Positions 4,473-38,285 of a stretch of DNA of 64,000 nucleotides are shown here, one piece after another. Within the stretch, counting starts at the first letter, position 1; every line of letters starts with the position of its first letter. The notes beneath the pieces were generated by a model that worked only from the letters and a program-made list of their open reading frames with translations, was not told the origin of the DNA and ran no database searches. Source of the DNA: Vicugna vicugna. Lineage: Eukaryota. The stretch covers positions 235,203-299,202 of the forward strand of contig MU057654.1 of the NCBI GenBank assembly GCA_013265495.1, in the 5' to 3' direction. Position numbers and translations under genes: made by a program.

Positions 4473-4505
4473 TGCAGTTCTGGATTTGGTCACCAGATGG
4501 CACTG
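4473..4505 (+). promoter_or_regulatory. CTCF binding site with upstream U motif
   Basis: TGCAGTTCT-N5-TGGTCACCAGATGGCACTG matches the CTCF core (CCASYAGRKGGCR) with one mismatch, plus a TGCAG-type upstream motif at 5-bp spacing. Confidence 0.7.
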
Positions 4506-4846
4506 ACCTCCAATTCTAATTTTACTTTCCAAAGGAAAAAATAATCATTTGGCAAAATGAGCAAATTGTACTTTAAATAGAGGTTATGAAACAGCACGTA
4601 AAATAAAATCATGATTAATTCCTTATGCTTAGCAATAAAAGCTTTTCAAAGCATTCCTTCAAAACTTTGACAATGCAATGTACTGATTTCTTCATTGTAA
4701 AAATCAATGAGACTTAAAGATATTTTTTAATATAAGAAAAATTGGAGAGGAAATTATCTACATATACCTCAGAAAACACTTTTTATACCAAGAATTCTCT
4801 TGAAGTATGATACAGATAAAATAAAAACTAAAAACATCATAGAACA

Positions 4847-5474
4847 ATGATCTAGCAATCCCACTCCTGGGCATATATCTGGAGGGAACACTAATTTGAA
4901 AAGATATATGCACTCCAATGTTCATATCAGCACTATATACAATAGCCAAGACATGGAAGTAACCTAAATGTCCACTGACAGATGACTGGATAAAGAAGTT
5001 GTGGTATATTTATACAATGGAATGCTACTTGTCCATAAAAAAGAATAAAATAATGTTACTTGCAGCAACATGGATGGACCTAGTGATCGTCATTCTAAGT
5101 GAAGTAAGCCACAAAGAGAAAGAAAAATACCTTATATTACTCACATGTGGAATCTAAAAAAAAAAAGGACACTATGAACTCATCTACAAAAAAGAAACAG
5201 ACTTGCAGACATAGTAAACAATCTTATGGTTACTGAGGGAAAAGGGGATGTGAAGGAATAAATTTGGGAGTTTGAGATTTGCAAATGTTAGGCACATAAA
5301 AATAGATTTAAAAAAACAAACAAATTTCTCCTGTATAGCACAGGGAACTATATTCAATACCTTGTAATAACCTTTAATGAAAAAGAATATGAAAAGGAAT
5401 ATATGTATACATATGGATGACTGGGACATTGTGCTGTACACCAGAAATTGACACACTGTAACTGACTGTATAAT
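4847..5474 (+). mobile_element. 5'-truncated lineage-specific LINE-1 3' end with TSD
   Basis: ORF2 C-terminus and 3' UTR. 17-bp TSD aaaaa(c/g)atcatagaaca at 4830-4846 and 5475-5491. Confidence 0.9.
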
Positions 5475-6338
5475 AAAAAGATCATAGAACACTATAGGAT
5501 TGCAATTAACCTTATGAAAAGATATCCAACAACAATCAGTATACAAATAAAAGTTCTGGCAATTTTATCCTCAGCTAAAAAAAGGCAAATTGCATGATAA
5601 AGTTTGCTGTTATCCTATTCTCACACACAAAAAAATGTGTATATCTGCTCATACATATTGTGCATATGCATGTATTGTGTACATATATGTTTGAGAAAAG
5701 CATCTGCAGAATATGCTCCACACCATTAACAAAGGATATCTCAGCAGGGAGAAATAAGGGATACAGGATCATTTCATTTTCTACATATACATATCTTTAT
5801 TATTTGATTCCTATCAACTACAAACATACATTAGTTTTATAATTGAGGAAAGTAAATGAGATACATTTTTGAATACAGGAAAAAAATTGCTATAGTCCAA
5901 TCCCAGAAACTTATTTCATATAAATCTACTGGGCTAGAAAGGAATTCACAGCTGTTAAATTCAAAAACAAACAAAAAGCAATGTTTGCACATGATGTATG
6001 CACAGTTTAATCCTAGTTGCTGTTAATACACCTATGTGTATGTGCAAGTATATGCATAAAGCAAATGTGTCTAAAAATATATAACCAAAAATAGTACATT
6101 CTCACCACCCCCAAACAGATACACATTTCTTCAGAGACCTTCACCCTGGCAGCTTCCTCTTCATGAAACAGAGGTGGAACTTCCTGCCAGAAGCTCAGAG
6201 AACCAGGCAGCACCTGATTCTGCAGGAAGGCCTGCCTGTACCATTCAAACCTCTAGAAGGCCGCGTTTGTGGGTCAGACTAGAGACTCCTCCCTCCCCAA
6301 ATCCTTACTTACTTAGCCACCTCGCAGACATTGAGAGA

Positions 6339-6371
6339 TGTAGTTTTGGCTCTGACCAGAAGGTGGCGATC
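6339..6371 (+). promoter_or_regulatory. CTCF binding site with upstream U motif
   Basis: TGTAGTTTT-GGCTC-TGACCAGAAGGTGGCGATC. Paralogous to 38253-38285. Confidence 0.7.
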
Positions 6372-9300
6372 ATCTCAATTTGCTACCTTCGCTGCAAAGA
6401 AAATATATCAATTTTTGCAAACAAGCAAATACGAAATGAACAGTCCTAACTATATTTGAAAAAATTATATATACATACATATATAAATACTGAAAGTGTA
6501 GTAGTTTCATTTGGTGATGACTCCCAAAGCTGAGTCTCTCCTATCCATTTATTCAATACACATATGTGGGGCACTGCTAGCTTGAGTCTGTTTGTCAATT
6601 TCACTCTTCTGTCTGATCCCCAGACTCTCATTTCCAACCACCTACAGGACATGTTAACATTAACTCGGAGAAAGACAACTACAATTCCTTTCTCCGTGTG
6701 TGGAGTGCATGCGTGCATGTGTGTGTGTTAAACCGAAGAGTTAAGAATCAGACAGGATAGCTCATTAAAGAATAAAAAGAAAAAGGACAAATATCCTTTT
6801 CTCTTCCCAATCCCATCAGAAAACATATACTATAACAAAAACAACAAAATAGCACCACAGCCCATAAATGTGTGTACATTTCATGTCTTGCGTGTATATT
6901 TTCATATGCCATCTATCACAGCTATGCTATTTATTTTACATCAGAATCTCCTCATTTATGGAAGGAAGGATTCTGGGACTAACTTTTCTAACATTTCTTA
7001 AAGGCTCAGTATGTGCCAGATATGTTCTATAGATCATCTGATCTTCTCCATAAAAATTCTGTTAGCAGGATTTTTGCTACTTAGCAATATCTATTTCTTT
7101 TGTTATTATTTTCCATCTGTACATATGATAAAATATTATATATGTGCATATGATAATAAAGATATGATTATCTATGAAAACATTGTAGTGATGAAAGGGG
7201 TGAGGACAAAGCGAAAAGGTCACAGCCAACATCTGTCCCACCTCAGCAGTCACCAATGCTGGGAGCAACTTGGTGCTACAGGGTCAAGTAAGCCACCACT
7301 GTCCCTTGCCTCCCTACCCTACCTGACAAACACCCCATAACCAAAACCTCATGAAGGATAATGGTTGGACTGAGGGCAAAGCCAACCTGAGATACTGCAT
7401 ATTCTCAAGGGGACAGACGAAGGTGCTGGACTAGGCAAAGCCCAGTGCAGTGGGAGAATGACCAGACCAGTTATGCTGAGATAAAGGCCCTAAGTAGTTT
7501 TGTTCGTGTAGTGCTCAGTGAGCAAATTTGGATGCCACTATGCTAGAAGATAATCAAGTTGGAACTCTCAGTTTAATGCTTAATGTATAAATTCATATTT
7601 TCAAGTAGAAAGTCTATTATTGCCTTTTCATTGTAGATATTCACCTCTTCACTTTAATCTAGCACCCTGTATTCATGCCATCTGCAAAAGCATTTCTGTT
7701 CTCAGTGCATGAAAATTGATTGTCTCAATGGGAGAACAAGGATGCTTTGTATTCAGCCATATATTTTGAGAATTTAATAGAGAATATTCATAGTGAAACT
7801 TTTTTTTGGTGAAACATCCCTTAAATAAGAATGAAGACAACCTAATTTTGTTCTCAATTTGTATATTCTGAATTTATATTACCCACAAGCAAATATATTG
7901 TCATTCAATCTTAAATTGGTGGTTGCATTAAAATTAAAATATTTAATTTGAAGAAACATCATGCCATAAGAAATTATGTTTTTGTATGCTTCCTGCTTAG
8001 TTTTGACAATGAGATTTTTTTTAACTGGTGAATTTTTTTTTCAGGGTCAAATGAAAAATAGGTTTCTTTCTCTTGTAAACACTGTCCATGTATTAGCAGA
8101 TAAAACTTTATAAATTAAGGTAAATGGTGTCCTGATTCTTTCATGTCATAGGATTTTAAAAATAGTATTTAAGGCTCAGCAAAGACTAGTGCTGACTTTC
8201 TATAATCTAGACATCCGGTTCACATTTCCACCTTCACTATGTGAACTTAAAACTGAGATTTGCATGAATAAAAGGTTACTTATTTCTAGTCCTTTCTCTG
8301 TCACATCGTTTCTGCCCTTGATTTCCTGATCTATGAAATGCAGATAATCACTCCTTAATGAAAAGGGGACTGTGGTCATTTTACAAGAGCCTATAAACAG
8401 CATCTCTGTATAACACAAGAGAGTGGCATTTATACTACTCATAGCAGGTAAAAAATGAGAGCCATTCTTATTTTAGTAAGGCTTTTGAAGGCCAATTATG
8501 GTGTCCTTATTTTTCTCTTTGAATAATATATTTATCCTGGATAGTCCTGCTTTTCGGTAAACATTTTCATTACCTTCCATAATAACTCAAGCAATAAACT
8601 CTTCTCATCTCCTATTGTCTGAAAGAAGTATGTAATGTCAGCTTCTTTGTGTTTCTACTCAATTTCATTCCTTCTTTTTCTACTTCTAATTCTCTGATTG
8701 ACTTTTTGCTTATCTAAAGATAATTGCAAAATATTAATCAAATCTGCCTTTAGTCTTTTGATTTTAGCTTATCTGGTTTTGGTATCTTATATTCCTTCAA
8801 TTAATGTTAGTTTACAACAGAGGATAAAAATTGGTGATTTGAGGAACACCATTTTTTCCACACAATGTTTAATTTTTAAAATAGTTTCCAGCATCTGTAA
8901 ACTGCAAGATTTCATAGATAAATGCAGCTCCCTGGCTTATTTTGAAAAATGAGGTTTGGTCTCTCAGGGCCTACATTTTTACATTCCCTCAAGGAAACAA
9001 GTGGCTGGACCTGATAGCAGTTTCCTCATCCCATTCACCACAGTTCTTACCACTCTCTATTGTATGACCCTCCCATACACACGCTGACACAGAATGTTTG
9101 TTAGTTTCTATTTTACTATTATTGCTATTGCCTTTCTTACAGTAAAAAAAAAAAATTGAAATATTTCTTGCTTCTACTTAGTCAATCAAAACTGAAGGAC
9201 CAAAAAATAGAGAGTGTTTTTCATTTCAAGAAACCTGGAGAGAGAGAACATTTACCTGTAGAAGCAAAGGCTCTTCCCAAGATTTTTATAGACACCTACC

Positions 9301-10717: not shown

Positions 10718-10819
10718 AAAGTGAACACATTAGCCCACAGCTTTTGATCACTGAACTTTCAATTCAAGGAGTACTTAGGTCCACCATATCCAAGTTTTCA
10801 GATTGACTCACAGTGCAAC

Positions 10820-11989: not shown

Positions 11990-12210
11990 TGAAAGACACA
12001 CAGGACTGGCAGTAAAAAGTACTTTAGTTTTTGTTTCTGTTTAACCACTTGGTGGCTGTATGATCCCAGACAAGATGATTCACAAATTTGTGCCCCAATC
12101 TCTTCACCTAGGAAATGGAAGTGATAATTCCCCACATCACAAGAACACAGAGAATTAAAACTGACAGCATAGATAAGGCAGCAGCCACAGTACTTGGTAC
12201 ACAATAAATA
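11990..12210 (+). mobile_element. MIR SINE
   Basis: tgtgccccaatctcttcacctaggaaatggaagtgataat...cagtacttggtacacaataaatact. Confidence 0.6.
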
Positions 12211-13119
12211 CTTGGAGTTCCCTCAGCTCACAAGCAGGCAAAAACCGTGTGTCCTATTTCTTGATTCTTCTGCTTCTTCCCTACACTTCAGCCTTCTGTG
12301 GTCCTAACTACTTTCCCCAGCACAATTAAACACAGAAATGGCAATGATGTTCCTCCAAGAGGGAAACTCTCAGGGGAAACTAATGCCAGCATGAATTTGG
12401 CTCCTCATTCTATTGCCAATGCTCTTGCTGACCTTAACATTAACCTCCAGATTGTGCATCTCCTTTTGTTCAACCCAGTGACCTCACTGAATATCAGCCC
12501 CTCCCCCTCCACTAGGCAGCCTCAATGCCATTGCTTCAACAATTCTTCTGCCAGTTTCTTCAATTCTCTCACCCCATCCTCCTTTTAAACCAACCATTGC
12601 TCAAAAAACCCCACACACTATAAGGTACATAGTGACATTATTTATCAAGCAAAAACCTGGAAACAAGACACAGATCAATTCCCAGAAATGTTATTATAAG
12701 TTCAGGCTTTTGGTACATTTAGTTTTTAAACAATATCATACTTTTCAAACATATTTACATTATTGGGAAATGTACTCAAATTTTAAAATGTGTGAAATTG
12801 AGACAATTAGCAGAAAAAAATAACAATCATGATCATGCCCCTGCCCAGCAATAACCATTCTTTTCTTGTTCTTATTGTTGTGAGGATTTCCATATACGTG
12901 CATACATGTGTATATGTATAGACATTTGTATATGTATATATACAAATGACACCAGCATGCATTGGGTAACTTCTCTGCCCCTGTGCTGAGAGGTAGATGT
13001 AAAAGTTCTGGGGTCAAAATCAAGAGGCCAGAACGATGTGTGGAAACTTGGAACATCACATTAATGATCAGAGCCACAGACTCCATGGCAGAGATACAAA
13101 TGATATCCTCTCCTTTTCT

Positions 13120-14389
13120 TTTTTTAAAACATTTTTATTGATTTATAATCATTTTACAATGTTGTGTCAAATTCCGGTATAGAGCACAATTTTTCAGTTA
13201 TACATAAACATATATATATTCATTGTCACATTTTTTTCGCTGTGAGCTACCATAAGATCTTGTATATATTTCCCTGTGCTATACAGTATAATCTTGTTTA
13301 TCTATTCTACATTTTGAAATTCAAGTCTATACCTTCCCACTCCCTGCCCCCTTGGCAACCACAAGTTTGTATTCTATGTCTATGAGTCTGTTTCTGTTTT
13401 GTATTTATGCTTTTGTTTTTTTAGATTCCATAGATGAGCGATCTCATATGGTATTTTTCTTTCTCTTTCTGGCTTACTTCACTTAGAATGACATTCTCCA
13501 GGAGCATCCATGTTGCTGCAAATGGCATTATGTTGTCAGTTTTTATGGCTGAGTAGTATTCCATTGTATAAAGATATCACCTCTTCTTTATCCAGTCATC
13601 TGTTGATGGACATTTGGGCTGTTTCCATGTCTTGGCCATTGTAAATAGAGCTGCTGTGAATATTGGGGTGCAGGTGTCATTTTGGAGTGGGGTTCTTTCT
13701 GGATATATGCCCAGGAGCGGGATTCCTGGGTCATATGGTAAGTCTATTCCTAGTCTTTTGAGGAATCTCCATACTGTTTTCCACAGTGGCTGCTCCAAAC
13801 TGCATTCCCACCAGCAGTGTAGGAGGGTTCCCTTTTCTCCACAGCCTCTCCAGCATTTGTCATTTGTGGATTTTTGAATGATGGCCATTCTGACTGGTGT
13901 GGGGTGATACCTCATTGTAGTTTTGATTTGCATTTCTCTGATAGTTAGTGATATTGAGCAATTTTTCATGTGTCTATTGATCATTTGTATGTCTTCCTTG
14001 GAGAATATGTTACTATATATAGAAAACCCTAAAAGGTCCACACAAAAACTAGTAGAGCTGATTGAAGAATTCAGCAAGGTAGCAGGTTACAAGATTAACG
14101 TTCAAAAAATCAGTTGCATTTCTTTACATTAACAATGAATCAACAGAAAAAGAAAATAAAGAAACAATCCCCTTTAAAATAGCACCCAAAGTAATAAAAT
14201 ACCTAGGAATAAATCTCACCAAGGAGGTGAAAGAATTATACACAGAAAATTATAAACCATTGATGAAGGAAATTAAAGAAGACTTTAAAAAATGGAAAGA
14301 TATCCCATGTTCTTGGATTGGAAGAATCAATATTGTTAAAATGGTCACACTGCCCAAGGCAATCTACAGATTTAATGCAATCCTTATCA
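13120..14389 (-). mobile_element. Young LINE-1 insertion with 5' inversion
   Basis: Antisense 3' UTR and ORF2 C-terminus (13120-14006) joined to a sense RT-region piece (14007-14389, MLLYIENPK...YRFNAI). Perfect 18-bp TSD gatatcctctccttttct at 13102-13119 and 14390-14407. Confidence 0.93.
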
Positions 14390-18015: not shown

Positions 18016-18024
18016 CCAAGTTCT

Positions 18025-21400: not shown

Positions 21401-23519
21401 CTACTCTCTGCTCCCAATACTTTGTCCCAGAACTTGTCTCTGAACTGATCAGATACCCCTGGAATCTCTGCCTTGTTCCCCACCTCACCCACTAGTTCAT
21501 AACTGCAGCTTATCTTACTAATATGGGTTCCATTGATCCCACATAGCTCCTCATAACCTTTAGTGTCATCATGTCTTTAATGATCACACAATTCCCATCT
21601 ACTCATGGCCCCTTGTGATCCTAACACTCTGTAACCCTTGTACTAAAGAAACCAATGATTGGATGTGAACATGTCACCCAATCAGTGGCCATATCCAGTG
21701 TCAGAAAAGTCAGACCTAGATCATGCAAGAACAGACATTGTCTCATATTGCTACAAAATAAAAGAAAGCAGAGAAAAATGATGTCTGAATGCTCTTAGCA
21801 CCCTAACCTGCACAAAAAAGGTAATGAAATAATGGTAGGAAGAGTGACTTCTACCCAAGTACATTGTAGGTCAGACCAGGCTTTGATCTCACTCAGATTT
21901 TCTGAAAGCTCATTTAGCACCACAAAAAAAGCAAAAAGTATTAGTTCTGCAACCAGTCTTACACCTGGACTACCTTAGATCCCTTGAATGCTCAGTTATC
22001 TCTGAGTGCTGTCTGTTTACCTGGAGCCCCCACTTTTCATTTCAGTCAGAATGGACTCTCGGTCCCCTCCCTCCCGTCCAGCCCCCATAAGTCCTAGCCA
22101 TCATCCCAGACCCAGCTCTTTTTGAGGAGACTCTGATGACTCCAGTGATCCCTTCCTCCTCTTAATATATTAATGAAGAACTACAGAGGTGACCAAAACT
22201 TCTACAAGGCCCTGAACCATGTGAAACCATTACTGAGACCTCTGCATACCCTAGGTCACTGGAGGTGTAAAGAGTGACACATAGTCAATGAACACCTGTG
22301 TGTTAGCATACCTCCCTTCAGACCTAGTGACCTCTTTCTGGAGTTGTAAGAATTTTCAAGACCCTCAGGCTGTGTGTATGCTTGATATGAGTCTAGAGGG
22401 CTCTAACAAAGGCCAAAAAAACCCCACAATTATTCAATAGAAAAGGGGTGAAGACTACCCCCCCCATTCTGAGTCTTTTACACTGCGTATCAGAGATGGC
22501 ACTGAAATTCTAACATAATATAGATGAGTACAGGTGTTCCCTTCTTCATATATTCCCAAATACTCACTAAAATATAGTATTGTTACTGAGGCTGAGAAAC
22601 AACATCTTTGTTAATTATTGGAGTTGTTGATATGGGAAGACAGCAAACATTGGTGTCGTGAATGATGCGTCAATACCATGTTGGGATCTTTACAAAGGTT
22701 TCTTCTTGAACTCCTCAAAATGCTTCCTTGAGGTAGGGGTCAGAATTTCCTTTTACACATCAGGAAGGCAAGGCTTATGGAAGTTAAGCAGATTCCTCAG
22801 ACTCATTCAGCTACTAAGAGACAGAGTCATTATCATATCCCCTGTTTGCCTGTCTAGGGCCCATGTTTGGAACCAGAAACTCATCTTCCTCTTTAGATGC
22901 ATGATTTGGGCAAGGGGAACTGAAAAGTGCCACTGGTAGGTGTATAGCAACTAGGGCAATACCTAGTGAGTATCTAATAAAGCTGAAAGTGACCCTACAT
23001 AAGGATTCAGCATTTGTGTTCTTGGTACAACAACCTGCAAAATAGCTGACATTTGAGCACAGGGAAACAAATAATGAGACTATTTTTTGCCACATTATTT
23101 GTGATAATATCTGTAGGGGGAAAATGTCCATTAATAGGACATTGAAAAATACATTGTGGCATATTCATACCTTGGAATCACACATACTGGTGAAGCACAG
23201 AGGGAGAAAAACTACAGGAACCAGCACATAGAGTATCTCAAAAACATAAGGTGAGGTGACAATAGCAAGAGAGATAAGGACATCTATATTGTCAGATCTG
23301 TTCTGCTTAGGGATGGTAATGAAAGTATAAAGGAAAGCATGGGAATCAAGAAAACCAATTTCAACAGTGTTTATCTCTGGAAATGGGAAAGTACAATCAG
23401 AGAAAAGCATATAATGGGCTTCCAATGTAATTACAGCTATGAATTTCCCTCTTAAATTACTTTAGCTGCATTGCATATTTTTTGATATGTTGTGGTTTTG
23501 CTGTCATTCGTCTCAGAGT

Positions 23520-25920
23520 ACACATGGAACATTCTTCAGAACAGATCATATGTTAGGCCACAGTAGCTTTTAAAAAGATCAAAAGCATAGAAAGTGTCTT
23601 ATCTGACCACAATGGCATGAAACTAGAAATCAATAACATAATGAAAACTAAAAAATTCACAAATATGAAGATTAAACAATGAACTCTTAAACAGCTAATA
23701 GTCAAAGAAGGAATTACAAGATAAACTAAAAAAAATTGAAACAAATGAAAATAAAAATAATATGCTACAGCTTATGGGATGAAATGAAAACAATGTCCAG
23801 AGACAAATTTATAGCTATAAATGCTTACACTTAAAAAAGAAAAAGATTTCAAATCAGTAACCTACATTTACACCTTAAGGAACTAGAAAAAGAAGGGCAA
23901 ACTAAATTCAAGCCTAGCAGATGAAAGAAATAGCAAATATTAGAGCAGAGATAAGTCAATAGACACGACAAAACCAAAAATTGGTTCTTTGAAAAGATAA
24001 AAAGATGAACAAACCTTTAATTAGAAGGACAAAACAGAGAAGCTTAAAATAACTGAAGTCACTAATGAAAGTTAGGTCATTACTACTGACCCTACAGAAA
24101 TAAAGAAGTATTATAAGGGAATACTATGAACAATGATATGCCAACAAATTGTATAACCTGGGCGAAATGGACAAATTCTTAGAAAAATACAAATGAATGC
24201 AACTTATTCAACAAGAAAAGAAAATCTCAACAAAACTATAACAAGTAAAGAAATTGAATCAGTGATCAAAAACCTCCTGACAAAGAAAAGCCCAGGACCA
24301 GATGGCTTCATTGATGATTATGTCCAAACATTTAAATAAGAATCAACATTAATCTTTCTCTAACTCTTCCAAAAAACAGAAGAGGAGAGAATACTCACTA
24401 ACTCATTCTCTGGAGCTATGTTCCTCTGACCCTGCAAGAAAAATATAAACCAATATCCTTTATAAATATAGATGCAAACATCTTGAATGAAACACTGGTA
24501 AACTGAATTCAAGAGTATGGTAAAAGGGGGAGGGTATAGCTCAGTGGTAGAGTGCATGCCTACGATGCACGAGGTCCTGGGTTCAATCCCCAGTGCCTCC
24601 ATCAAAAAATAAATAAACCCAATTACCCCCCCCAAACAAGAGTATGGTAAAAGGATTATAAACCATGACCAAGTAGGATCTATTCCATGAATGCAAGGGT
24701 TATTTAACATAAGAAAATCAATAAATGTACTGTTCCACTTTTATAGAAAAAAAGGATAAATGGATGATCATCTCAATTGATGCAGAAAAAGCATCTGACA
24801 AAATGGAACACTCTTTCAAGATAAAAGCACTCAGAAAACTAGGAATAGAAGAGCACTTCCCCAACATGATAAAGGGCATTTCTAAAATCAGTAACAAGAT
24901 AAGGATGTTGGCTTTCACCACTGCTATGCAACATAATGCTGAAAGTTCTAGTAAGACCAATTAGGCAAGAAAAGAAATAAAAGACATGAAAATTGGAAAG
25001 GAAGAATTAAAACTATTTCTACTAACAGGTTACATGGTCCTATATGCAGAAAACCCCAAAGAATCCACAAAAGACTACTATAGCAAATAAACTAATTCAA
25101 CAAAGTTTCAGAGTACAAGATCATCACAGAAAAATCAGTTATGTTTCTGTACACTAACAATGGACAATTGAAAAGGAAATTAAGAAAACAATTTGATTTA
25201 CAATAGCATCCAAAATAATAATGTACCTAGAAATGAATTTAACTAAGGAGGTGAAAGACATGTGCAATGAAAACTACAAAATGTTGCTGTAAAAATTAAA
25301 GAAGATCTGAATAAATGGAAAGACATCCTTTCTGTGTTCATAGTTTAAAAACTTAATATTGTTAAGATAGCAATACTACTCAAAATAGCCTATAGATTCA
25401 ACAAAACACCAAGAGATATAAAAACACAAATCCACACAAACATTTGTACATGAATGTTCATAGCAGCATTATTCATAATAGGCAAAGAGCAGAAAAATCC
25501 CAAATGTCCATCAGCTGATAAATGGATTTAAAAAATGTGGTATATTCATTCAATGGTATATTATTTGGCAATAAAGAAAGAATGAAGTAAAATGGGGGAA
25601 TCTCAAATTAATTACGTTTAGTGAAAGAAGCCAGACGCCTCCTGCCCCTCAAAAAGAATATTTACTATACTATTCCATTTATTTGAAATTCTGGAAAATA
25701 TTAAACTATAGAAACAAGAATCAGATCAGAGGTTGCCTAGGACATGACTGGTGGGAGACGGGAGGAGATTGATTATAAATGGGTAAAACTGAACTTTACC
25801 AAATGATGCAAATGTTTATATCTCTATCACAGGGGAGAACACCAACCAATGCATTTGTCAAACTTATAGAGCCAAACATCTAAAAAGAGTCAGAATGACT
25901 ATACCTCAATAACTTGAGTT
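23520..25920 (+). mobile_element. Old decayed LINE-1 ORF2 and 3' end, interrupted by a SINE
   Basis: ORF2 motifs KSPGPDGF and [13 protein letters not shown], internal deletions, and an L1M-type 3' UTR. Confidence 0.85.
24528..24636 (+). mobile_element. Vic-1-type camelid tRNA-derived SINE
   Basis: gggagggtatagctcagtggtagag (A box), gggttcaatccc (B box), aaataaataaacccaattacccccccc tail. TSD caagagtatggtaaaagg at 24510-24527 and 24637-24654. Confidence 0.88.
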
Positions 25921-26289
25921 GAAAAATAAATAGACCACATTTAAGACCAGCGCTGAGTTGATACAGCTCTTAAGAGAAGAATACTTGTCAGAAACTACAG
26001 GAAACATTTAAAAACAACTAAGAAAGCATTTGTTATCATTTGGTTATCTTCCTTCCCCTCTGTGCAATCTTTCTGGTTTTAAAATAAAATGAGAAAACTG
26101 TAAAATAAACAAGCAAACAAAAAAACTTAGTGATAATGACTAAAACAATAAGTTAATATATAATTTCCTGAGAACTAGAATTAGACTAAGGAGTTAAAAG
26201 GGGAAAAAAACCTGAAAGAATCCAAAAGATTCCAGGAAAGTAGAAAAATAGGAGCATAGAAAAGGCAGGAAAATAGAAAGGATAAAATG

Positions 26290-27134
26290 AAAAGGTATAA
26301 ATAAGCCAAACATATAAGAAATCATACTAAATATAAGTAAACTAACCCAGCCATTTTAAAAAAGACAATATCTGATTGATCTTTAAGTCCAGTTATATGC
26401 AATTTGCAAAAAAACACACCTAAAATATAAAGGAGAATATAATTCCATCTATACGGAGTTAACAAGATTTACAACTGAAATATAACAGCATAAAAATGTT
26501 GAAAGTAAGAGGACAGAAAAAGATATGCCAGACAAACACTGAAAAAAAGAAACCTGATGTAACTATATTATTGTCAGAAAAAAATAGCCTTTAAGGCAAA
26601 AAGGACTATTAAGGATAATCAGGGTCAGTACTGAATGATGAAAGATATAATTCTCCTGGAAGGTATCACAGTTATAATGCTTTTATGCCTCCTAATAACA
26701 CAGCTTCAAACTCTACAAAGCAAAAATTGACAAATTACAAAGATAAATTGACAAATCTACCATTATAGTGAGAGTTCTTAACATTCCTCTCAGTAACTGA
26801 TAGATCAAGAAGGCAAAAAACAGTGAAGATATAAAAAATTTGAAAAATACAGTGAACAAGCTTGATCCAATGGGCTTAGGCTTCTACACCAACAATTACA
26901 GAAATTAAATTCTTTTAAAGAATTTTGTAAACAAAACATTTATAGAAATTGACATTATAATAGTTTGTAAAGTAAGTCTCAAAAAATTTGCAAGCTAACT
27001 CCAAAGTACATTGGGAAGAATAAAAGTGCCAGGAATGGCAAAGATAATTCAGAAGACAAAAACAAGGTAGGGAGACTTGCTTTACCAGACACCAGGACCT
27101 ATTAGAAATCTGTAACAATTAAGACAGCATGATG
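26290..27134 (+). mobile_element. Old LINE-1 ORF2 remnant, left part of the host of the young L1
   Basis: Decayed endonuclease-region text. It resumes at 31435 after the insertion. Confidence 0.75.
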
Positions 27135-30100
27135 AAGAAGAAAGGAACAAAGAGTAAATACCAAATCAACTGCAAAGATAAGCTCAAAATGGTAATAAAC
27201 ACACATTATCATTAATTACCGTAAATGTTAATGGACTAAATGCTCCAGTCAAAAGACATAGAGTGGCAGACTGGATAATAAAGCAAGAACCTTCAATATG
27301 CTGCATACTAGAGACCCACTTTAGGGAGAAGGACACATATAGATTGAGAGTGAAAGGATGGAAAAGGATATTCCATGCAAATGGAAAAGCCAAAAAAGCA
27401 GGCGTTGCAGTACTGATTTCAGACAAAATAGACTTTAAAACAAAGGCCATAAAGAAAGATAAAGAAGGACATTTTATAATGATTAAAGAAGTGATACAAG
27501 ATGAGGATATTACACTCCTTAATATATATGCACCCAACATAGTAGCACCTAAGTATATAAAACAATTACTAACAGAGATAAAGGGGGAAATTGATGGGAA
27601 TACAATCATTGTCAGAGATTTTAACACCGCATTGACATCACTAGACAGATCTTCCAGACAGAAAATAAATAAGGTAACAGAGAAATTAAATGATATAATA
27701 GTAATATTAGATTTGATGGATATTTTCAGAGCACTTCACCCCCCCCAAAATAGGATATACATTCTTTTGAAGTGCTCATGGAACATCTAAGATTGATCAT
27801 GTACTCGGGCACAAAAGAAGCCTCAACAATTTTAAGAAGATAGAAATTATCTCAAACATCTTTACTGACCACAATGCCATGAAACTAGAAATCAACTACA
27901 GAGAAACAAAGGAGGAAAAAAGGAAAGCATGGAGCTAAAAAAATATGCTATTAAAAAACCAATGGGTCAATGATGAAATCAAAGTTGAAATTAAAAAATA
28001 CCTTGAGACAAATAAAAATGAAAACACAAACACACAAAATTTATGGAACACAGCAAAGACAGTGCTGAGAGGGAAGTTTATAGCGATACAGGCCTTTCTC
28101 AAGAAAGAAGAACAATCTCAAATAAACAATCTAAACCACCAGCTAATAGAATTAGAAAAAGAAGAGCAAAAAAAACCCAAAAGGCAGCAGAAGGAAGGAA
28201 ATTATAAAAATCAGGGAGGAAATAAATAAAATAGAGATTTTAAAACTATAGAAAAACTCAATCAAACCAAAAGCTGGTATTTTGAAAAAGTAAATAAAAT
28301 TGACAAACCTCTGGCCAAACTCACAAAGAAGAAAAAAGAGAGAGCACAAATAAGCAAAATAAGAAAGGAAATGGAGAAATTACAACAAATAACATACAAA
28401 TACAGAACATCATACGAGAATATTATGAAAAACTATCTGGAACCAAACTGGATAACCTAGAGGAGATGGACAAGTTTCTGGAAACATACAGTCCACCAAG
28501 ACTGAACCAAGAAGAAACTGACCACTTGAACAAACCGATCACTAGAAATGAAATCGAATTAGCAATCAAAAACCTCCCTACAAATAAAATTCCAGGACCG
28601 GACGGCTTCACTGGGGAATTCTACCAAACATACAAAGAACTCATACCAGTCCTTTTCAAACTCTTCCAGAAGATTGAAAAGGAGGGAATATTCCCAAACT
28701 CATTCTATGAAGCCACCATCACCCTGATACCAAAACCAGGCAAAGACACCACCAAAATAGAGAATTACAGACCAATATCACTGATGAACATAGATGCCAA
28801 AATCCTCACCAAAATATCAGCAAATAGAATCCAACAGCACATAAAGAAGGTTATACATCATGATCAAGTGGGGTTCATCCCAGGAACACAAGGGTGGTTC
28901 AACATACACAAATCAATCAGTGTAATACATCACATCAACAAGAGAAAGGACAAAAACCACATGATCATCTCAATAGATGCAGAAAAAGCATTTGATAAAA
29001 TTCAACACCCATTTACGATAAAAACTCTCACCAAAGTGAGTATAGAGGGAACATATCTCAAAATAAGAAAAGCTATATATGACAAACCTACAGCCAGCAT
29101 AGTACTCAATGGTGAAAAACTCAAAAGCTTCCCACTAAGATCTGGGACAAGACAAGGCTACCCACTAACACCACTCTTATTCAACATAGTCTTCGAAGTC
29201 TAAGCCACAGCAATCAGGCAAGAGAGAGAAATAAAAGGGATCCAAATTGGAAAAGAAGAGGTAAAAGTGTCACTATATGCTGATGACATGTTACTATATA
29301 TAGAAAACCCTAAAAGGTCCACACAAAAACTAGTAGAGCTGATTGAAGAATTCAACAAGGTAGCAGATTACAAGATTAACGTTCAAAAATCAGCTGCATT
29401 TCTTTACACTAACAATGAATCAACAGAAAAAGAAAGTAAAGAAACAATCCCCTTTAAAATAGCACCCAAAGTAATAAAATACCTAGGAATAAATCTAACC
29501 AAGGAGGTGAAAGAATTATACACAGAAAACTATAAACCATTGATGAAGGAAATTAAAGAAGACTTTAAAAANNNNNNNNNNNNNNNNNNNNNNNNNNNNN
29601 NNNNNNNNNNNNNNNNNNNNNNNNNNNNNNNNNNNNNNNNNNNNNNNNNNNNNNNNNNNNNNNNNNNNNNNNNNNNNNNNNNNNNNNNNNNNNNNNNNNN
29701 NNNNNNNNNNNNNNNNNNNNNNNNNNNNNNNNNNNNNNNNNNNNNNNNNNNNNNNNNNNNNNNNNNTTGGTCAACTCATCTTCGACAAAGGAGGCAAGAA
29801 TATACAATGGAATAAAGACAGTCTCTTCAGCAAATGGTGTTGGGAAAACTGGACAGCAGCATGTAAAACAATGAAGCTAGAACACACCCTTACACCATAC
29901 ACAAAAATAAACTCAAAATGGATCAAAGACTTAAACATAAGACAATATATATAAACCTCCTAGAAGAAAATACAGGCAAAACATTATCTGACATACATCT
30001 CAGCAATATTCTCCTAGGACAGTCTACCCAAGCAATAGAAATAAAAGCAAGAATAAACAAATGGGACTTAATGAAACTTACAAGCTTCTTCACAGCAAAG

Positions 30101-31420
30101 GAAACCTAAGTAAAACAAAAAGACAACGTACGGAATGGGAGAAAAATTTTGCAAATGAAACTGACAAAGGCTTGATCTCCAAAAAATAAAAGCAGTTCAT
30201 ACGACTTAGTAAGAAAAAATCAAACCCAATCCAAAAATGGGCAAAAGACCTAAACAAGCAGTTCTCCAATGAAGATATACAAAAGGCCAATAGACACATG
30301 AAAAATGCTCAATATCACTAACTATCAGAGAAATGCAAATCAAAACTACAATGAGGTATCACCTCACACCAGTCAGAACGGCCATCATTCAAATACCCAC
30401 AAATGACAAATGCTGGAGAGGCTGTGGAGAAAAGGGAATCCTCCTACACTGCTGGTGGGAATGCAGTTTGGTGCAGCCATTATGGAAAACAGTATGGAGA
30501 TTCCTCAAAAGACTAGGAATAGATTTACCATATGACCCAGGAATCCTACTCCTGGGCATATATCCAGAAAGAACCCTACTCCAAAATGACACCTGCACCC
30601 CAATGTTCATAACAGCACTATTTACAACAGCCAAGACATGGAGACAGCCTAAATGTCCATCAACAGATGACTGGATAAAGAAGAGGTGATATATTTATAC
30701 AATGGAATACTACTCAGCCATAAAAACTGACAACATAATGCCATTTGCAGCAACATGGATGCTCCTGGAGAATGTCATTCTAAGTGAAGTAAGCCAGAAA
30801 GAGAAAGAAAAATACCACATGAGATCGCTTATATGTGGAATCTAAAAAAAAACAAAAGCATAAATACAAAACAGAAACAGACTCATAGACATAGAATACA
30901 AACTTGTGGTTGCCATGAGGGTGGGGGTAGGAAGGGACAGACTAGGATTTCAAAACATAGAATAGGTAAACAAGATTATGCTGTATACCACAGGGAAATT
31001 TATACAAGATCTTGTGGTAGCTCACAGTGAAAAAAGAATGTAGCAATGAATATATATATGTTCATGTATAACTGAAAAATTGTGCTCTACACTGGAATCT
31101 GACACATTGTAAAATGACTATTACTCAATGAAAAATATTAAATATAAATAAATAAACAAATAAAATTGCTGTATGCTGCATATGAAAGTTGTTAAGTAAA
31201 TCCTATGAGTTCTCATCATGAGGAAATATATAAATACATGTATTTTTTTCTATTTATTTGATTTTATATCTATATGAGATGATGGATGTTCATTAATCTT
31301 ATTCTGGTAATGATTTACTGATGATATAAGTCAAATCATTATGCTGTATACCTTAAACTTATAAAGTGCTATATGTCAATTATATCTCAATAAAGCTGGA
31401 AGAAAAAAATTCCACAAAAA
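27135..31420 (+). mobile_element. Young LINE-1, near-complete but disrupted ORF2 (EN, RT, C-terminal Cys-rich region) and 3' UTR, plus a 3' extension
   Basis: ORF2 ATG at 27189 with an immediate frameshift. Motifs [44 protein letters not shown] and HCWWEC, with several stops and frameshifts. 14-bp TSD aagacagcatgatg at 27121-27134 and 31421-31434. Confidence 0.95.
29572..29766. other. Assembly gap (195 N) inside L1 ORF2
   Basis: Run of N. Confidence 0.99.
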
Positions 31421-31434
31421 AAGACAGCATGATG

Positions 31435-32030
31435 TAGGCAAAGGGCGAACAAATAGACTTGCCAGGTAAAATACAGGAAGCCTAGTTAAGCTGGAATTTC
31501 AGATAAAAGAATGGATATGTATGCTATGTGCTAAATCTGGCAACCCCATAAATAAACAAACCTCTGGAACTTAAGAGCGAGCCTGAAAACAGAATCATCC
31601 AGGTATAGAACCTCAACCTATGACAGAGGTAGCAGATCTGGTCAGTGGGAAGAGATAGGTTATTCAGTAAGTGATACTGGAACAATTATTCACTTATATG
31701 AAAAATAAATTAAAATAAAATCGCATCTGTATCTCAGACCAACCAAATTCAGCCCCAGGTAGATCAAGAGTAAATGTGAAAGACAAATGTGAAACATTTA
31801 GAATTAAATATAGGAATTAACTTTTGACATTGGAGTAGGAAAACTTTCTAAAACAAGACACAAAAAGTACAAACCATAAAACAACTGACTGATAATTATA
31901 GAAGAATGCATTTAAAACTCACAAACCGCAAATTGGAAAAACATATTTGCAGCATAGTTAATGAACAAAGGATTAGTATCCAAATTTATGAACAATATGT
32001 AACATATGAATCAATAAGAAAAAGACACCA
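31435..32030 (+). mobile_element. Old LINE-1 ORF2 remnant, right part
   Basis: Continues from 27134 (aagacagcatgatgtaggc...ttattcagtaagtgatactggaacaatt...aaaacaagacacaaaaagtacaaaccataaaa). Confidence 0.7.
31455..31548. mobile_element. MER53-like hAT MITE, internally deleted
   Basis: Inverted ends ttgccag...ctggcaa and internal aaatacagg...agttaagctggaatttcagataaa. Confidence 0.65.
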
Positions 32031-34719
32031 CACAGTCTATGGAAGGTTCTAGAAGATTCAAATATCTTAACTGTTTTCAGTTTTGGGTAGCCTTTCTCTT
32101 CATCCTGTAGGTCTGGTCAGGTATGGATGTCTAGAAGCCCCTTAACCTGAAGAGGGATAGAATGTGAAGCAGTGTGAAGCTCCTTTCTCTGAATGGCTTC
32201 TATAAGTGGTAGAAATCCCTTTACATGGGTCAGAAGTCACATAATGCACCACTTTTCTCTTTTAAGCAAAAAAAGTTTTGCTTGGAATTTTAGAGTCCTT
32301 GTAAAAACAGAATCAGCCAAATGCTTTCACCTGCAGGCCTGCAGAAACAGATGCATAGTATCACATAACAGGGTCTTGGCAAGTGATGGAAACTTTCAGA
32401 TTTTATATGAAAGTTTATATGTCACTTATTTTTTAAGTTCTTAAAAGCACATATCATAAACAATACTATCATCTCATAATCCACATAATATAAATACAAA
32501 AATGACCTTATTTTATATTGCAAGGCTCTCCCATCTGTCTTTTCTCTGCAACATTCTGTCCCTTCCTTCTTTTTGAATTTTGCAGTGCATCTCACTTTAG
32601 CATATTTAGCTGCGTGGTCTGTACATTTTAGGAGGAGAAAAACATGATACTCTATGTACATGCACATTGAGAAATTTAAATCTCATTTAAAAACAAACAA
32701 TAGCAATCTCATATGAGAGTCAGTTCTGTAGGGTGGCACTTAGTAGTACAAAGTAATCAGGAAATACAGATTCAGGGAGAACTTTACATTTTCCTTTACA
32801 CATGTCTAGATTGTTGGCATTTAACAGGACGAGTAATGCTTTTTATTATTAAAATAATGTTGTGGAAAAGAAATGAAAAGTCAAAACGCTGAAATTAAAG
32901 TTTTCTCCTTTTGAACTTGATTTGCTCGCATCCTTCCTCAGTTACCTTTTATTTAACTAGAATTTTAATGTCCAGCCAAAACCATATATAATGTCATAAA
33001 TCAATGTTACCTCAATAAAATAAATTTTAAAAACACGTTTATTTGCTATGTTTAGTAAATTTTCCATGCTTTCTGCAGGCAAGCCCTTTACCAGGCTTTG
33101 CTTATTTCCAACATCTTGGCACTTTCCATTTGTTTCCATATGTACATGTTTTGCATTAAGAATACTCCATATACGATAATGTGGATTATATTAAGTAGGA
33201 AGAATGAAGCAGTAAATCCCACTACTTAGCAATGCAATGGCAGACATCTTTCAAAGAGAACACCCTCCAACATCTCACCCTGCTACCAACCAACCCTGCC
33301 CCTGATCAGAAAGTATTAAGTAAATCTTTTAAAAATTATTCTGTAAGCAACAGTGAGAACTTTAGATAAAATGTTTATGGGTTAAGGTGATTCTGATGAT
33401 AGACTCCATCTTCTTAATATTTACTTACATTTGAGGAAAATGTGGCACACAGATATGCAGTGACTTGCCCAAGGCCACAGAATATTATGCAGGAGGGAAC
33501 AGACTAGAATCTAGTTATCAGAAATGAATATAAATATTTCTACTCTATCATACAATAAAAGAAGATACAATACATACAGTAGAAGAAGAAAACATTACCT
33601 TATTTGTACAAGTCTGATCCACCACTAAGTTTTTTTATTATGTCAAGAACATGGAGTTTGATATCAGAAAAAGACAGGCTACAATCTCAATTTTTTTCAC
33701 ACAAAAGATGCACAGCCCCAGAAAAGCTATTGCATTTCACCCATTCTAGGACACACATTTGTTTCACTTTTTAACACTTCAATCATTAGTGTCCTACCAT
33801 TATAACAGCAAGCATTTTGTCTTTCTTAGTAGAGCCTAAAGTAGCACGTGTCTTTAAAGTGATGGCATGTTGGATTCAATGAAATACAATTCTTTACCTG
33901 TTGGAGTCTCAGTTTCCTCATCTAGAGAATAGAACTGAAAATATCCCCTTCACATAAATGTTAAGAGGATTAAGGGAGGTAAAACTATATATGGCAGCAA
34001 TCCTGGGCACAGAGCAGGCACCCAGAGTTCCCTGGGTTCCCTGGGGTTTGGGGGCCTGGACCAAGGAACCCATTATCTTACCCTTTTAATTTCTCCCAGT
34101 GCATCAGCCCCCTTAAATGTGGCATTCTCTTTCTGGATCCAACTTAGAGTCCAGGGCCTATCACTTCAACTGCTTCACTTCAGTAATCCTCAGTTCTCCT
34201 GCGTCTTGGTCCTTCTGCCTCAACCATGGGGTAAATCCCTAATATATAGTTCTGTGCAGATTGTCCAGCAGGACAAATTCCTGCAAGAGGAATTGTCGGG
34301 TTGAAGTGCACAAGTCCCTTTTTAACTGATTTGGTGTCTGTCCGGGAAAGATGAACTCTCATCCTTTGCTGGTGGGAGTTGGGATTGGTGTTAAACATTG
34401 AAAACTTACATTTGGCAATACGGTATGCTTCGATTAAAAATTTTTACTCTCAGGAACTTATCCTATGGAAAATCTTACACAAGTTCCAAAAATATATGCA
34501 CAATCAACATGATTGTACCATTGTTTCAAATAGGAAATTCTCAAAACAAGTTTTGTTGTAAGATAAATTCCTCAGGGCACAATGGCAGGATCAAGATTTC
34601 TCAAGATATAGAACATTTAATTAAATAGAAGAAAGTAAGAATTACTTAAAGAAAATTAAAATAAAAATTATCATCAGTTCTTCTGCCACCAGTCAGAAAT
34701 AACCATCTCTTTATTTTCT

Positions 34720-35150
34720 ATTACTGGTATGTATAATATTCATAGAAATTGGTTCCCAGGAGAGTGCCTACCATGACACTACGTTTGACCACTAACATCA
34801 TATATAATATTTCAAGGTCAATATTATCACCACATTTAAAGATGAGGAAACTGAGGATCTGAGGAGTGAAGAAACTTGTAGGAATAAGTAGCAGAGTCAG
34901 AATGGGATCCCAGGGGTACTTGATAATAAAGCACAGCACAATAATCTGTATTTGGGTAATTCCATCAATTTTTTTCAATAACCCTATAAATGAAAGGATT
35001 ACTTTCCTCCTTTTCAGAATGGGAAAACTGAAGCTCAGAGAGGTTAAGTACCTTACCTTTGGGTCACTCCTCAGTAATGGGTAGAGCCTAGATGAGGACA
35101 CAAAGTGTGTATGACCCCAAAGTCTTTTCTCTTTCCAACCCATCATACTG
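34720..35150 (-). mobile_element. Two tandem MIR SINEs
   Basis: Cores agatgaggaaactgagg (about 34840) and aaactgaagctcagagaggttaagt (about 35025). Confidence 0.75.
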
Positions 35151-35759
35151 CCTTGTGTTCCTTAACTATAAAAGCTTTTAGGCTTCTGTTTCTGACTATA
35201 AAACTAATTCATGTTCACTTAGGATAGTATCAAAAGCACAGACAAGTATAAAAAGATACAAATAACCTTCAATCTCACTCTCACTGATAAAGAGTGTTCA
35301 TGGTTTGTTACATCCCTTTGCAACCAGGAATATCCACATATATACGCATACATGTACAGCTGCACACACTTTTTATGTAACTAGTATCACACTAGATGGA
35401 TATGTGGTATTCTGTACTAATATTTTGGCCTTCATATTATATCATATGACATGAGGATAAGATCTCCCTTTCCTTTGTAGTGAACAGTTTACCAATGATC
35501 CAGTACCAATTCTTATTTTATGAATTCTCTTTTTATCAGATACTCAATATTTCTGTGCACTTGGTTCTGTTTCTTATTTTTCTGTTCTGTCCTATTAAAA
35601 TATATGTCAGTTCTTGCACTAGGATTGAAAAGTTTTAATACTGCATCTTCATAAAACCTTGTCATCTAAGGTAATACTCTACATCCCCCCCACCCCGGGG
35701 CACAAGCCCTTTAGCCTCTTGATTGGCTTGAGAAGGCTTATTATAAAAGAACATGAAGG

Positions 35760-35970
35760 TAACATTTATTGAGTACTTAGTGTCAGACATTTTATTAAAT
35801 TCTTTACATGCATTTTCTCATTTAATTTTCAGTACAACCTAATGAGGTTGTTGCTGTTGTAAAAGCCATTTGAAAGATTTTTGTAATGGGGCTCAGAAAG
35901 GTTAAGTAATTTGCCAAAGGTCATGCAACCTGAAAATAGTAGCACCCAAGCCCCAAACCCCTAACCATAG
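35760..35970 (-). mobile_element. MIR SINE (paralog of 1285-1520)
   Basis: aacatttattgagtactta...ggctcagaaaggttaagtaatttgccaaaggtca. Confidence 0.75.
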
Positions 35971-38252
35971 TTACATTTTGTGTGACTCCATATTAGAGAC
36001 GAGGGCAGCACAAGAGAAAAGACTCATGTAAGTTCCTGAGGTCCGTTATTATGCTTGATTCCCCTGTACTATCTCCTCTTTCCAGGGCTTAGTGGAAAAC
36101 TGTTTCGTTGGATGTTCAAATAGAAAATGAAGTAACAGGGACAGGAAATCACATGGAATAAAAGGAAACAGTGCAATGACTGTCTTCCCTTGCCCTAACT
36201 TCCTCAGATCCCACAGCACAGAAATGGCACTCAACTTCATACATTATGTAAATATTTAAACATTTCATTTATTGTTGCTATACTTCCAAATGCTCTCTCT
36301 GATAATTCTGCTCTTTGTTTGATGTGTCTCTTTTATGGTAGAGAGGAATCATGATGGGCAGAACAAAAATTTGTTGACGTCACATACTACGTGCCAAATA
36401 CTTGTTTAAGTTTTCTCATTTTCCCCACACAACTCTGTGGAAAAGGCATCAATTTGCCCCCATTTTACAGCAGATGAATTCACATTCACAGAGAGTAAAA
36501 GTTTCCAAAGTCACACATCTGCTAAGAGGCAGGAATGAGTTTCCAGCTCTTGCCCTCCCCACAATAAACAAAGAGAAGCCTCCCTTTTAGAATATGGGTT
36601 TCCAGAGCTGGAGAAATAGTTGAGCACACTTCCTGATATTGTGGCCCCACAAGTTCTCACTCATCAACCCGTCTGGATGAGGAACATGACATAGGAGATG
36701 AAATCTCGCCTCTTCTGCCAAGAGACCTGGGTATCTGGACCACATCTGTTGGCTCATCCCTGAAGCAGTGAGGGGGGTTTGGCAGAGGCTCAGGTTTTTA
36801 AACACTGGCAAGGTGGCCTGGGAGATGGAAATGAACACTCATGAAACATTCTATACCATAATAACTTCATATCTCATCTCCTTTAATCCTGAAAACAAAC
36901 ATCCAAGATAGAGATTACTATCCTCTTCCTAAACTGGAGCTCAAGCCAAACGATTCAGGTCAGCAGCATGAATGTAAATTATAGACCAGGGACTCTAAGC
37001 CTGGAATTGTTCCAAACCCAGGCTTTTCCTGCTGTGTCCTGTGGCCTCATGGGCTTTGAATGCTCTCTCTGCCTAATCTCCCAGAAGACTGACAATTACT
37101 CCACCCCAGTGTAGTCTTCAAATATTTATAATTAATCACATTGTTTGTAATAATAAAAATCAGTATGATTTTAAAACATCTGCATTGTAAGAAAATGAAA
37201 CAAAATATAAAATGGGAAGGAAAATTGTTCACATATACTACAGACATCGAGTTAATATTAATATCATATCAGAAAGTGACCATAGAACTTGATATACTCC
37301 CAATTTATGTCTTATTTTTTACCAGTGCAACTTTCACTCTCAAAAGTGCCCAGTTCAAGCAATGAATTATACAATCATCCTCAATATAAATAATTCTTTT
37401 TGACTAGTAAGAGATGGGTAAAGGGCAACCTGCAATTTTCATAAGAAGCAATGTAAGTGCCCAAAAAGTCTATGAAAAGATGACCCAAACACAATAATGA
37501 AAGAAATACAGATTAAAATCTAAAGGTTTCATAAGTGAAAAAAGGGAGAGGTGCTTATTAGAGTGTTGCCCGCCCCCTCCTTTTTCCCTGGAGAATGGAT
37601 ATGCAGAACAGTATATTTATATTGTGCATGTATGTATGCATTTTGTGCATATATTTGCACAAAGGTACTTATATACATTATATGGGGATAAAAACATTTG
37701 TAGAATATATTAGCACTTATTAAGAATGTTTATCTTAGGAGGGTAAACAGCACAGTTTCATTTCTATTTATACATTTTTCTATGATTTGATGTCCTCAAT
37801 GCACAAATATAATCATCTGATTCACACAACTAATGTTATAGAAATATTCACTTGGAACAGGAGAGACTATTAAGCATAGAAAGCAGATTATACACTGTGT
37901 TACAATATGATTCCAATTTATTACTGATAATACGCTTATGTTTATGAGTAAGTGCATGTTATAAAGCAAATGTGTCTAAAAGCTATGACCCAAAATAAAA
38001 AATATGTATCCCTCCCCCACACACACCCAGATAAACACTCTGTCAGAGTCACTCACACTGGTGGCTTTCTCTTCATCTGAGATAGGGGTGGAACTTCCTG
38101 TGGAGAGCTCAGAGAACCAGGCAGCATCTAATTCTGCAGGAAGGCCTGTCTGTGCCATTCAAGCTTCCAGTAAGCCGTGTTTGGTGGGTCAGACCAGAGG
38201 CCCCTCCCTTCCCAAATTCTTGACTTAGCCGCCTCTCAGAGATACCGAAAGA

Positions 38253-38285
38253 TGTAGTTCTGGCTCTGACCAGCAGGTGGCAGTC
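38253..38285 (+). promoter_or_regulatory. CTCF binding site with upstream U motif
   Basis: TGTAGTTCT-GGCTC-TGACCAGCAGGTGGCAGTC. The core CCAGCAGGTGGCAG is a full consensus match. Confidence 0.8.

Follow-up and report, generated by a model that had tools for sequence, protein, structure and literature searches.

Two-part CTCF sites, in which a core is preceded by an upstream motif, have been estimated to make up a quarter to a third of CTCF sites (M1+M2; Schmidt et al. 2012, PMC3368268) or, counted as core plus upstream motif, 13-15% of them (PMC12885311), and they are stronger and more conserved (PMC3368268, PMC12885311). With a cluster defined as at least two sites less than 10 kb apart, 57% of mouse CTCF sites fall in clusters, most of which are consistent in orientation, and boundaries typically consist of such clustered sites in a shared orientation, some gained and others lost (Kentepozidou et al. 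2020, PMC6945661); duplication as an origin is nowhere mentioned in the text of that paper. In the protocadherin (Pcdh) and Igh arrays, each site is tied to a variable-exon promoter or a V segment and faces reverse enhancer sites (Jia et al. 2020, PMC7087399). In addition, interlocus gene conversion of non-coding DNA has been described in the BEX/WEX(TCEAL)/GASP(ARMCX) cluster (Winter and Ponting 2005, PMC1274310).

A sequence-only reading of a 64,000-nt stretch of Vicugna vicugna DNA (contig MU057654.1; hereafter the window) had placed core-plus-upstream CTCF motifs at 4473, 6339 and 38253, all on the + strand, and the letters claimed at these positions were found to match exactly. The window putatively belongs to Xq22.1, a region specific to placental mammals, with an NXF gene on one side of it and ARMCX2 on the other. 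All 3 sites had the same 33-bp layout, in which a 19-bp core is preceded, across a 5-bp spacer, by a 9-bp upstream motif (Table 1). With a core matrix that approximates JASPAR MA0139.1, and on which the bit scores depend, they ranked first to third among 11 matches above 9 bits on both strands of the whole window, the next-best core match scoring 14.7 bits. A score of at least 20 bits was reached by these three and by nothing else in the window, against a mean of 0.005 in 200 locally shuffled windows. The word TGYAGY at the upstream offset occurred at 0.17% of positions; site 1 carries TGCAG, and sites 2 and 3 carry TGTAG, which differs by one change. By these features, sites 1 to 3 are genuine two-part (core plus upstream) CTCF motif sites, at which binding is predicted. 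They resemble the described two-part sites in the 33-bp layout, the 9-bp upstream motif, the 5-bp linker and the TGG/TGA before the core, but differ in the TGTAG, not TGCAG, of sites 2 and 3 and in an origin that appears to be local duplication with no recognised repeat. Moderate reverse-strand motifs (13-15 bits) were located at 19404, 32340 and 50024, between and around the strong forward sites. As block paralogues, the moderate matches at 12042, 19404, 32340, 50024, 53584 and 56728 were rejected, 115-363 of 400 null windows being equally good.

Table 1. Predicted CTCF sites, block copies and flanking features in the window
Feature	Position	Strand	Remarks
CTCF site 1 (predicted)	4473..4505	+	upstream motif 4473-4481, 5-bp spacer, core 4487-4505, 21.6 bits
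CTCF site 2 (predicted)	6339..6371	+	upstream motif, 5-bp spacer, core 6353-6371, 20.8 bits
CTCF site 3 (predicted)	38253..38285	+	upstream motif, 5-bp spacer, core 38267-38285, 25.0 bits, strongest
Block around site 1	4360..4609	+	about 60% identical to site 2 and 3 blocks
Tract around site 2	6017..6414	+	81% identical to site 3 tract
Tract around site 3	37921..38328	+	81% identical to site 2 tract
Copy 4, decayed paralogous site	52629..52661	+	core -6.0 bits; motif-masked profile E 0.002
Copy 5, block with motif lost	43170..43361	+	best core -12.3 bits; motif-masked profile E 0.0024
Partial sixth copy	53962..54084	+	motif-masked profile E 0.0024; best core 5.1 bits, no site
Unit 1 upstream part	1243..2587	+	collinear with 35714-37041
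Unit 3 upstream part	35714..37810	+	includes element E at 36071-36342
Site 2 upstream flank	5510..5827	+	collinear with 37468-37810, about 65% identity
Copy 5 upstream flank	41127..41623	+	collinear with 36696-37181
Element E copy	6684..6966	+	immediately follows site 2, where the next unit starts
Element E copy	48115..48392	+	upstream of decayed copy 4; resumes at 51438-51483 past an insert
Inverted element E piece	49175..49315	-	other inverted pieces at 39110-39156 and 54624-54692

The three sites had also been read as paralogous, and this held with the motif left out of the comparison. The upstream flank of site 1, motif excluded, matched that of site 2 better than 400 of 400 random windows and that of site 3 better than 397 of 400, and a motif-masked profile of sites 2 and 3 recovered site 1 (E 0.006) and matched no decoy. 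Identity of the flanks among the site-bearing copies of this old non-coding unit was 62-70%. The implied set of three copies proved incomplete, as two more copies of the block, with decayed motifs, were found at 52629 and about 43330, which makes at least five in all; the motif is kept in 3 of 5 block copies and lost in 2. The spacer of copy 4 is identical to that of sites 2 and 3, the paralogy of copy 5 was equalled by none of 400 null windows, and the sixth copy is recognisable only downstream of the site position. In the block trees, only the grouping of sites 2 and 3 was resolved (100/99). The upstream part of unit 1 consists, in order, of a MIR-like piece, the 270-bp element E (1651-1923) and another MIR-like piece, the MIR label being given by resemblance, and an L1M-like 3′ piece of unit 3 (37468-37810; the repeat labels in this unit are likewise putative) matches 5510-5827. 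Collinear flanks and motif-masked homology bear out the proposed origin by duplication. The 4.4-kb flanks of the sequence-only reading were homologous piecewise (about 1240-4610 versus 35710-38400) and not as a single 4.4-kb flank.

Contrary to what had been supposed, the flanks near sites 2 and 3 are not heavily diverged: 319 of 393 columns are identical over a tract of about 400 bp, and the mismatches are uniform along it (chi-square P 0.93). The tract around site 2 is rich in GC and CpG relative to the window; per 300 bp, 6 CpG were counted at site 2 and 4 at site 3, the window mean being 1.3 and the dead copies having 0 and 1, and site 1 had only 1. The tract has sharp edges and an LTR-like size, and no terminal or target-site repeats shared at its ends were found. 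Sharing this 81%-identical tract, sites 2 and 3 do not count as independent; their likeness would reflect either conversion or a younger copy. The tract is similar to those of PMC1274310 in being a short non-coding stretch more similar than its flanks, and it would lie in the same region if the Xq22.1 placement is right; it differs in being intergenic rather than part of 5′ UTR/BGW promoter elements, in containing a CTCF site and in being only 81% identical.

No gene was found in the window by ORF listing and a simple splice model. Pfam searches of 282 ORFs of at least 50 aa outside L1 gave 5 matches, all below the cut-off, and none for 12 read-through frames from two candidate regions; no cysteine/Ig-V motif patterns were found, nor any CpG island in the units, which may contain short or non-coding exons. 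A BEX/TCEAL/ARMCX remnant was looked for and not found. A tRNA-like match at 24530-24601 (Rfam and ARAGORN search) was taken as a SINE head.

That the sites form a functional directional array of the protocadherin or immunoglobulin type, with site number and orientation selected to spread enhancer contacts over repeated promoters, is suggested by three strong sites that are all forward and paralogous, like the Pcdh/Igh sites that arose by unit duplication, and by the additive insulation of tandem sites. Pcdh/Igh arrays have many co-oriented sites; here there are three, spread over 34 kb and interspersed with moderate reverse motifs, together with two dead copies and gene-free units, in which Pfam, Ig-V and CpG-island searches gave no sign of repeated promoters, variable exons or V segments to which the sites could each belong. 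Sites 1 and 2 (1,866 bp apart) fit the cluster rule of Kentepozidou et al. by motif, are co-oriented and have neighbouring copies that were lost, whereas site 3, 31.9 kb from site 2, lies beyond the 10-kb limit. Because direct duplication alone gives co-orientation without selection, site 3 is 32 kb off and the units lack genes and promoters, the sites do not make a protocadherin-type array, and we consider such a function highly unlikely; the "directional array" of the sequence-only reading was thus not upheld, only sites 1 and 2 being within 10 kb and sites 2 and 3 not being independent. As predicted sites, the first two would make an ordinary CTCF cluster and the third a lone site nearby, rather than all three an array for promoter choice.

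Differences among the sites had been said to fall mostly at tolerant positions. This was so for 7 of the 8 variable core columns and not for column 4 of site 1, which is T where a high-information column expects C; such a share of high-information columns (1/8) has P 0.037, and pairwise column tests for sites 1/3 and 2/3 were not significant (P 0.15 and 0.17). Neutral simulation on the five-copy tree kept at least three full sites in 0.1-4% of the runs that kept at least one, and with the core alone, an optimal ancestor and a shallow tree, three were kept in up to 26%. Purifying selection gains from the column bias and the simulation and loses from motif loss in 2 of 5 copies and from raw identity, which among these paralogues was not significantly higher in the motif than in the flank (Fisher P 0.22, 0.17 and 0.53 across site pairs). 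Orthologues of host origin were sought in metagenomes by two pattern scans, each with 0 matches. Because substitutions avoid high-information columns and three full sites seldom survive neutral simulation, selection at the level of motif function, not raw identity, is moderately supported.

Alternatively, the sites could be neutral relics of an ancestral strong site copied with the unit, three copies of which still match and may bind CTCF without being selected. Loss of the motif in two of five blocks, motif identity equal to that of the flanks, the uniform mismatches between sites 2 and 3, the explanation of two of the three matching copies by one conversion or younger copy, and the core-only neutral probability of up to 0.26 are in line with this; however, that probability is 0.001-0.04 once the upstream motif is counted, the column bias speaks against it, and site 1 and sites 2/3 keep both parts in register despite about 40% flank divergence, and we regard neutral relics as unlikely. 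It is more doubtful still that the block of 400 bp represents an ancient transposon, not recognised as such, that carried the motif in independent insertions, like B2, SINEC-Cf and fossil repeats. CTCF sites are known to come from repeats, and the edges and size of the site 2/3 tract would suit one, but flanks on both sides are collinear among copies, including common element-E/MIR junctions, and the tract ends lack shared terminal or target-site repeats. The single ancestral site may itself have been of transposon origin.

The explanation we favour, with reasonable though far from full confidence, is a duplicated ancestral CTCF site under selection in some copies, giving an ordinary cluster and a nearby singleton. 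Local duplication would have multiplied one ancestral two-part site together with the old non-coding unit around it; selection would preserve binding ability in some copies and redundant copies would decay, and a conversion event or younger copy would additionally have held sites 2 and 3 alike. The raised CpG counts at sites 2 and 3 and the usual make-up of boundaries also speak for this explanation; the single CpG and the column-4 mismatch of site 1 and the TGTAG of sites 2 and 3 speak against it. The element is of an ordinary kind and would probably help to wall off neighbouring X-linked gene groups. A more elaborate version, which we think improbable, is that a gene-free unit with one two-part site was copied 5-10 times as placental-specific Xq22 expanded through local duplication, that selection pruned the copies to three forward sites marking the boundary between ARMCX (broad) and NXF (germline), and that interlocus, GC-biased conversion refreshed two of them.

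By itself the finding is modest, since CTCF sites commonly have two-part motifs, lie in clusters and share an orientation. In the mostly open-access literature searched on CTCF at this locus and on duplication-born clusters, no description of the sites was found; the conserved-site tables of PMC3368268 may include their human orthologues. If the sites are bound, the block, with three copies that have the motif and two that do not, would constitute a natural experiment in a region exclusive to placental mammals, and would allow a test of whether local duplication and gene conversion, beyond transposons, build CTCF boundaries. If the more elaborate version is true, a domain boundary would have arisen from tandem duplication of non-coding DNA and been upheld by concerted evolution, the dead copies serving as built-in controls.

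The three motif occurrences that the sequence-only reading had placed at 4473, 6339 and 38253, all on the plus strand, proved letter-exact, each comprising a 9-bp upstream motif, a 5-bp spacer and the CTCF core. Scanning both strands of the window with a core matrix that approximates JASPAR MA0139.1 revealed 11 matches above 9 bits, among which these three (sites 1 to 3) ranked highest, followed by matches of 14.7, 13.9 and 13.3 bits, all on the minus strand; 200 locally shuffled windows gave a mean of 0.005 matches of at least 20 bits. For moderate matches (13-15 bits), about 1.2 were expected by chance. Since TGYAGY occurred at only 0.17% of positions, its presence at the upstream offset in 3/3 sites is not attributable to chance; sites 2 and 3 read TGTAG there, not TGCAG. 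The layout is that of the published two-part CTCF site, which spans 33/34 bp, accounts for between a quarter and a third of binding events and shows stronger binding and better conservation (PMC3368268). Fingers 3-7 and 9-11 contact it across a typically 5-bp linker, and its upstream part is required for insulation at IL3 (PMC12885311).

Compared with itself, the window proved to be a patchwork of decayed local duplications separated by L1 insertions, with about 16 kb masked as L1-type DNA. In a recurring unit, an element of 270 bp (E) stood between two MIR-like pieces, and the CTCF block came last, after an L1M-like 3′ piece; the MIR and L1M names were assigned provisionally, by resemblance. 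Blocks around the three sites matched one another, and flank identity between unit copies was mostly 62-72%; the single 4.4-kb flank claimed earlier was not recovered as one piece. Site 1 remains paralogous to the other two when the motif is set aside: the 170 bases upstream of it matched site 2 better than 400/400 random windows and site 3 better than 397/400, and it was recovered at E 0.006 by a profile made from the other two sites with the motif masked, which gave no match in the reversed decoy. Element E gave 10 matches at E <0.01 (4 training copies, 3 inverted) and none in two decoys. The inverted copies carried the MIR-like junction, and therefore the unit was also duplicated in reverse; no CTCF block was recognisable beside them. 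Paralogue distances and an assumed neutral rate suggest a unit age of about 90-125 million years.

The set of three sites was real but incomplete, as two further block copies had been overlooked, so that the motif is kept in 3/5 blocks. Copies 4 and 5 were found at E 0.002 and 0.0024 with a profile trained on sites 1-3 alone, and their flanks are collinear with the other units. None of 400 null windows was as good as the copy 4 flank against site 1, the match being weaker against sites 2 and 3 (17/400 and 74/400), and none was as good as the copy 5 flank.

Features of the window (core scores from the matrix approximating MA0139.1)
Feature	Coordinates	Strand	Remarks
Site 1	4473-4505	+	21.6 bits
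Site 2	6339-6371	+	20.8 bits
Site 3	38253-38285	+	25.0 bits
Copy 4	52629		core -6.0 bits; spacer as in sites 2 and 3
Copy 5	43170-43361		best core -12.3 bits, near 43330
Sixth partial copy	53962-54084		only portion downstream of site position
Unit match	1243-2587 / 35714-37041		self-comparison
Unit match	5510-5827 / 37468-37810		self-comparison
Tract of sites 2 and 3	6017-6414 / 37921-38328
GGAACTTCCTG plus 21-bp identical stretch	6165-6180 / 38079-38100		upstream of sites 2 and 3
Inverted element E copies	39051-39338, 48842-49395, 54279-55297
Moderate core matches	19386-19404, 32322-32340, 50006-50024	-	no upstream motif; not paralogous to block
Moderate core match	12042-12060	+	same
Second duplicated block	48700-51375 / 54100-57690
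250-bp part of second block	51131-51375 / 57440-57688		78% identity vs 60% surroundings
Possible 124-bp exon, first copy of second block	51193-51316	+	good splice signals
Old inverted duplicate outside unit	7456-8133 / 19672-20651		E down to 3e-17
Nested L1, about 8 kb	23500-31440		long ORF2 pieces; quarter of site 2 to site 3 distance
195-base assembly gap	near 29570-29770		inside nested L1
L1 fragment	13115-14382		two oppositely oriented parts (5′ inversion type); 92-97% identity to 29288-31152
tRNA-derived SINE-like copies	24530-24601, 54880-54996		77% alike; first with Rfam tRNA match
CpG-enriched patches	58600-58900, 56350-56700		6-7 per 300 bp; away from CTCF sites

Site 2 and site 3 cannot be counted as independent of each other. 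They clustered at 100/99 support and shared a tract with 74 mismatches in 393 columns, bordered by 62-70% identity. The mismatches were evenly distributed (chi-square P 0.93), which fits interlocus conversion, or a younger copy, with an age of perhaps 50 million years on paralogue distances and the assumed rate. Their upstream 170 bases had 54% GC vs 34-45% in other copies, and CpG counts in 300 bp were 6 at site 2 and 4 at site 3, the window averaging 1.3; this CpG content would likewise suit an unmethylated, active element that is selected for. Besides holding a CTCF site, the tract may act as an enhancer or promoter. GGAACTTCCTG, upstream of both sites, looks ETS-like.

Purifying selection on the motif, as proposed earlier, was not borne out by raw identity; among these paralogues the 33-bp motif was no more conserved than its flanks in any pair (mismatches 4/33 vs 70/360, P 0.22; 9/33 vs 82/218, P 0.17; 12/33 vs 83/221, P 0.53). 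This comparison is the refutation test put forward earlier, here run on paralogues. Because the copies are direct, the shared orientation needs no selection. We consider it unlikely that sites 1-3 are neutral relics, unselected leftovers; column bias and simulation were moderately favourable to selection. Only 1/8 variable core columns was high-information (P 0.037 pooled; 0.15 and 0.17 in two of three pairs). Neutral simulations used a five-copy tree and counted only runs in which one or more sites survived; across 6 settings, at least three sites retained both parts in 0.1-4% of these runs, and judged by the core alone in 0.5-26%, figures that assume no indels, a guessed ancestor and thresholds picked after the data were seen. 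These patterns give moderate support to selection on binding ability, rather than on sequence.

An unrecognised transposon as the source of the block is improbable, as terminal repeats shared between copies were not found. Membership in the protocadherin or antigen-receptor class, suggested earlier, is very improbable; every Pcdh/Igh site goes with a variable promoter and is opposed by reverse sites at an enhancer (PMC7087399).

No genes were detected in the window by ORF, Pfam and GC checks, which could miss short or non-coding exons. Of the ORFs of at least 50 aa outside L1, 0/282 reached the Pfam cut-off (5 sub-threshold matches), as did 0/12 read-through frames of two candidate regions, and GC was at most 44% in every 2-kb segment. 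The 250-bp part of the second duplicated block may represent a non-coding exon or a further element that was conserved or converted. By a provisional placement, an NXF2-like gene presumably lies 17 kb and TCEAL2/6 about 194 kb before the window, and ARMCX2 some 50 kb beyond its end. This presumed order agrees with human ARMCX2 - NXF5 - KIAA1789 - WEX1/2 (172 kb from ARMCX2 to NXF5) in PMC1274310, which describes the 2.3-Mb region holding ARMCX2 - NXF5 as absent from chicken and opossum and as having non-coding gene conversion. Expansion of the region's gene families predates placental diversification according to passages of PMC7586669, in which CTCF is not mentioned.

In mouse, 57% of CTCF sites lie in clusters (<10 kb apart); conserved sites are consistently oriented in 84% of clusters examined, and 70% of new sites take the cluster orientation (PMC6945661). 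By motif, sites 1 and 2 fall within this spacing, whereas site 3, 31.9 kb off, does not. By analogy, the three may act as CTCF clusters do at the edge of a domain. No published description of these sites was found in a search, of incomplete coverage, on this locus and on duplication-born CTCF clusters. On balance, we think it probable that CTCF would bind stably at the three sites; being forward, they would point towards higher coordinates, the presumed ARMCX side, where stalled cohesin would provide insulation, and redundancy would have let the remaining block copies decay. The motifs, their paralogy and their loss in some copies are observed, and binding, looping and targets are inferred. 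Rather doubtfully, tandem copying of DNA without genes may have created a boundary here, in a region specific to placentals, with conversion renewing it since.
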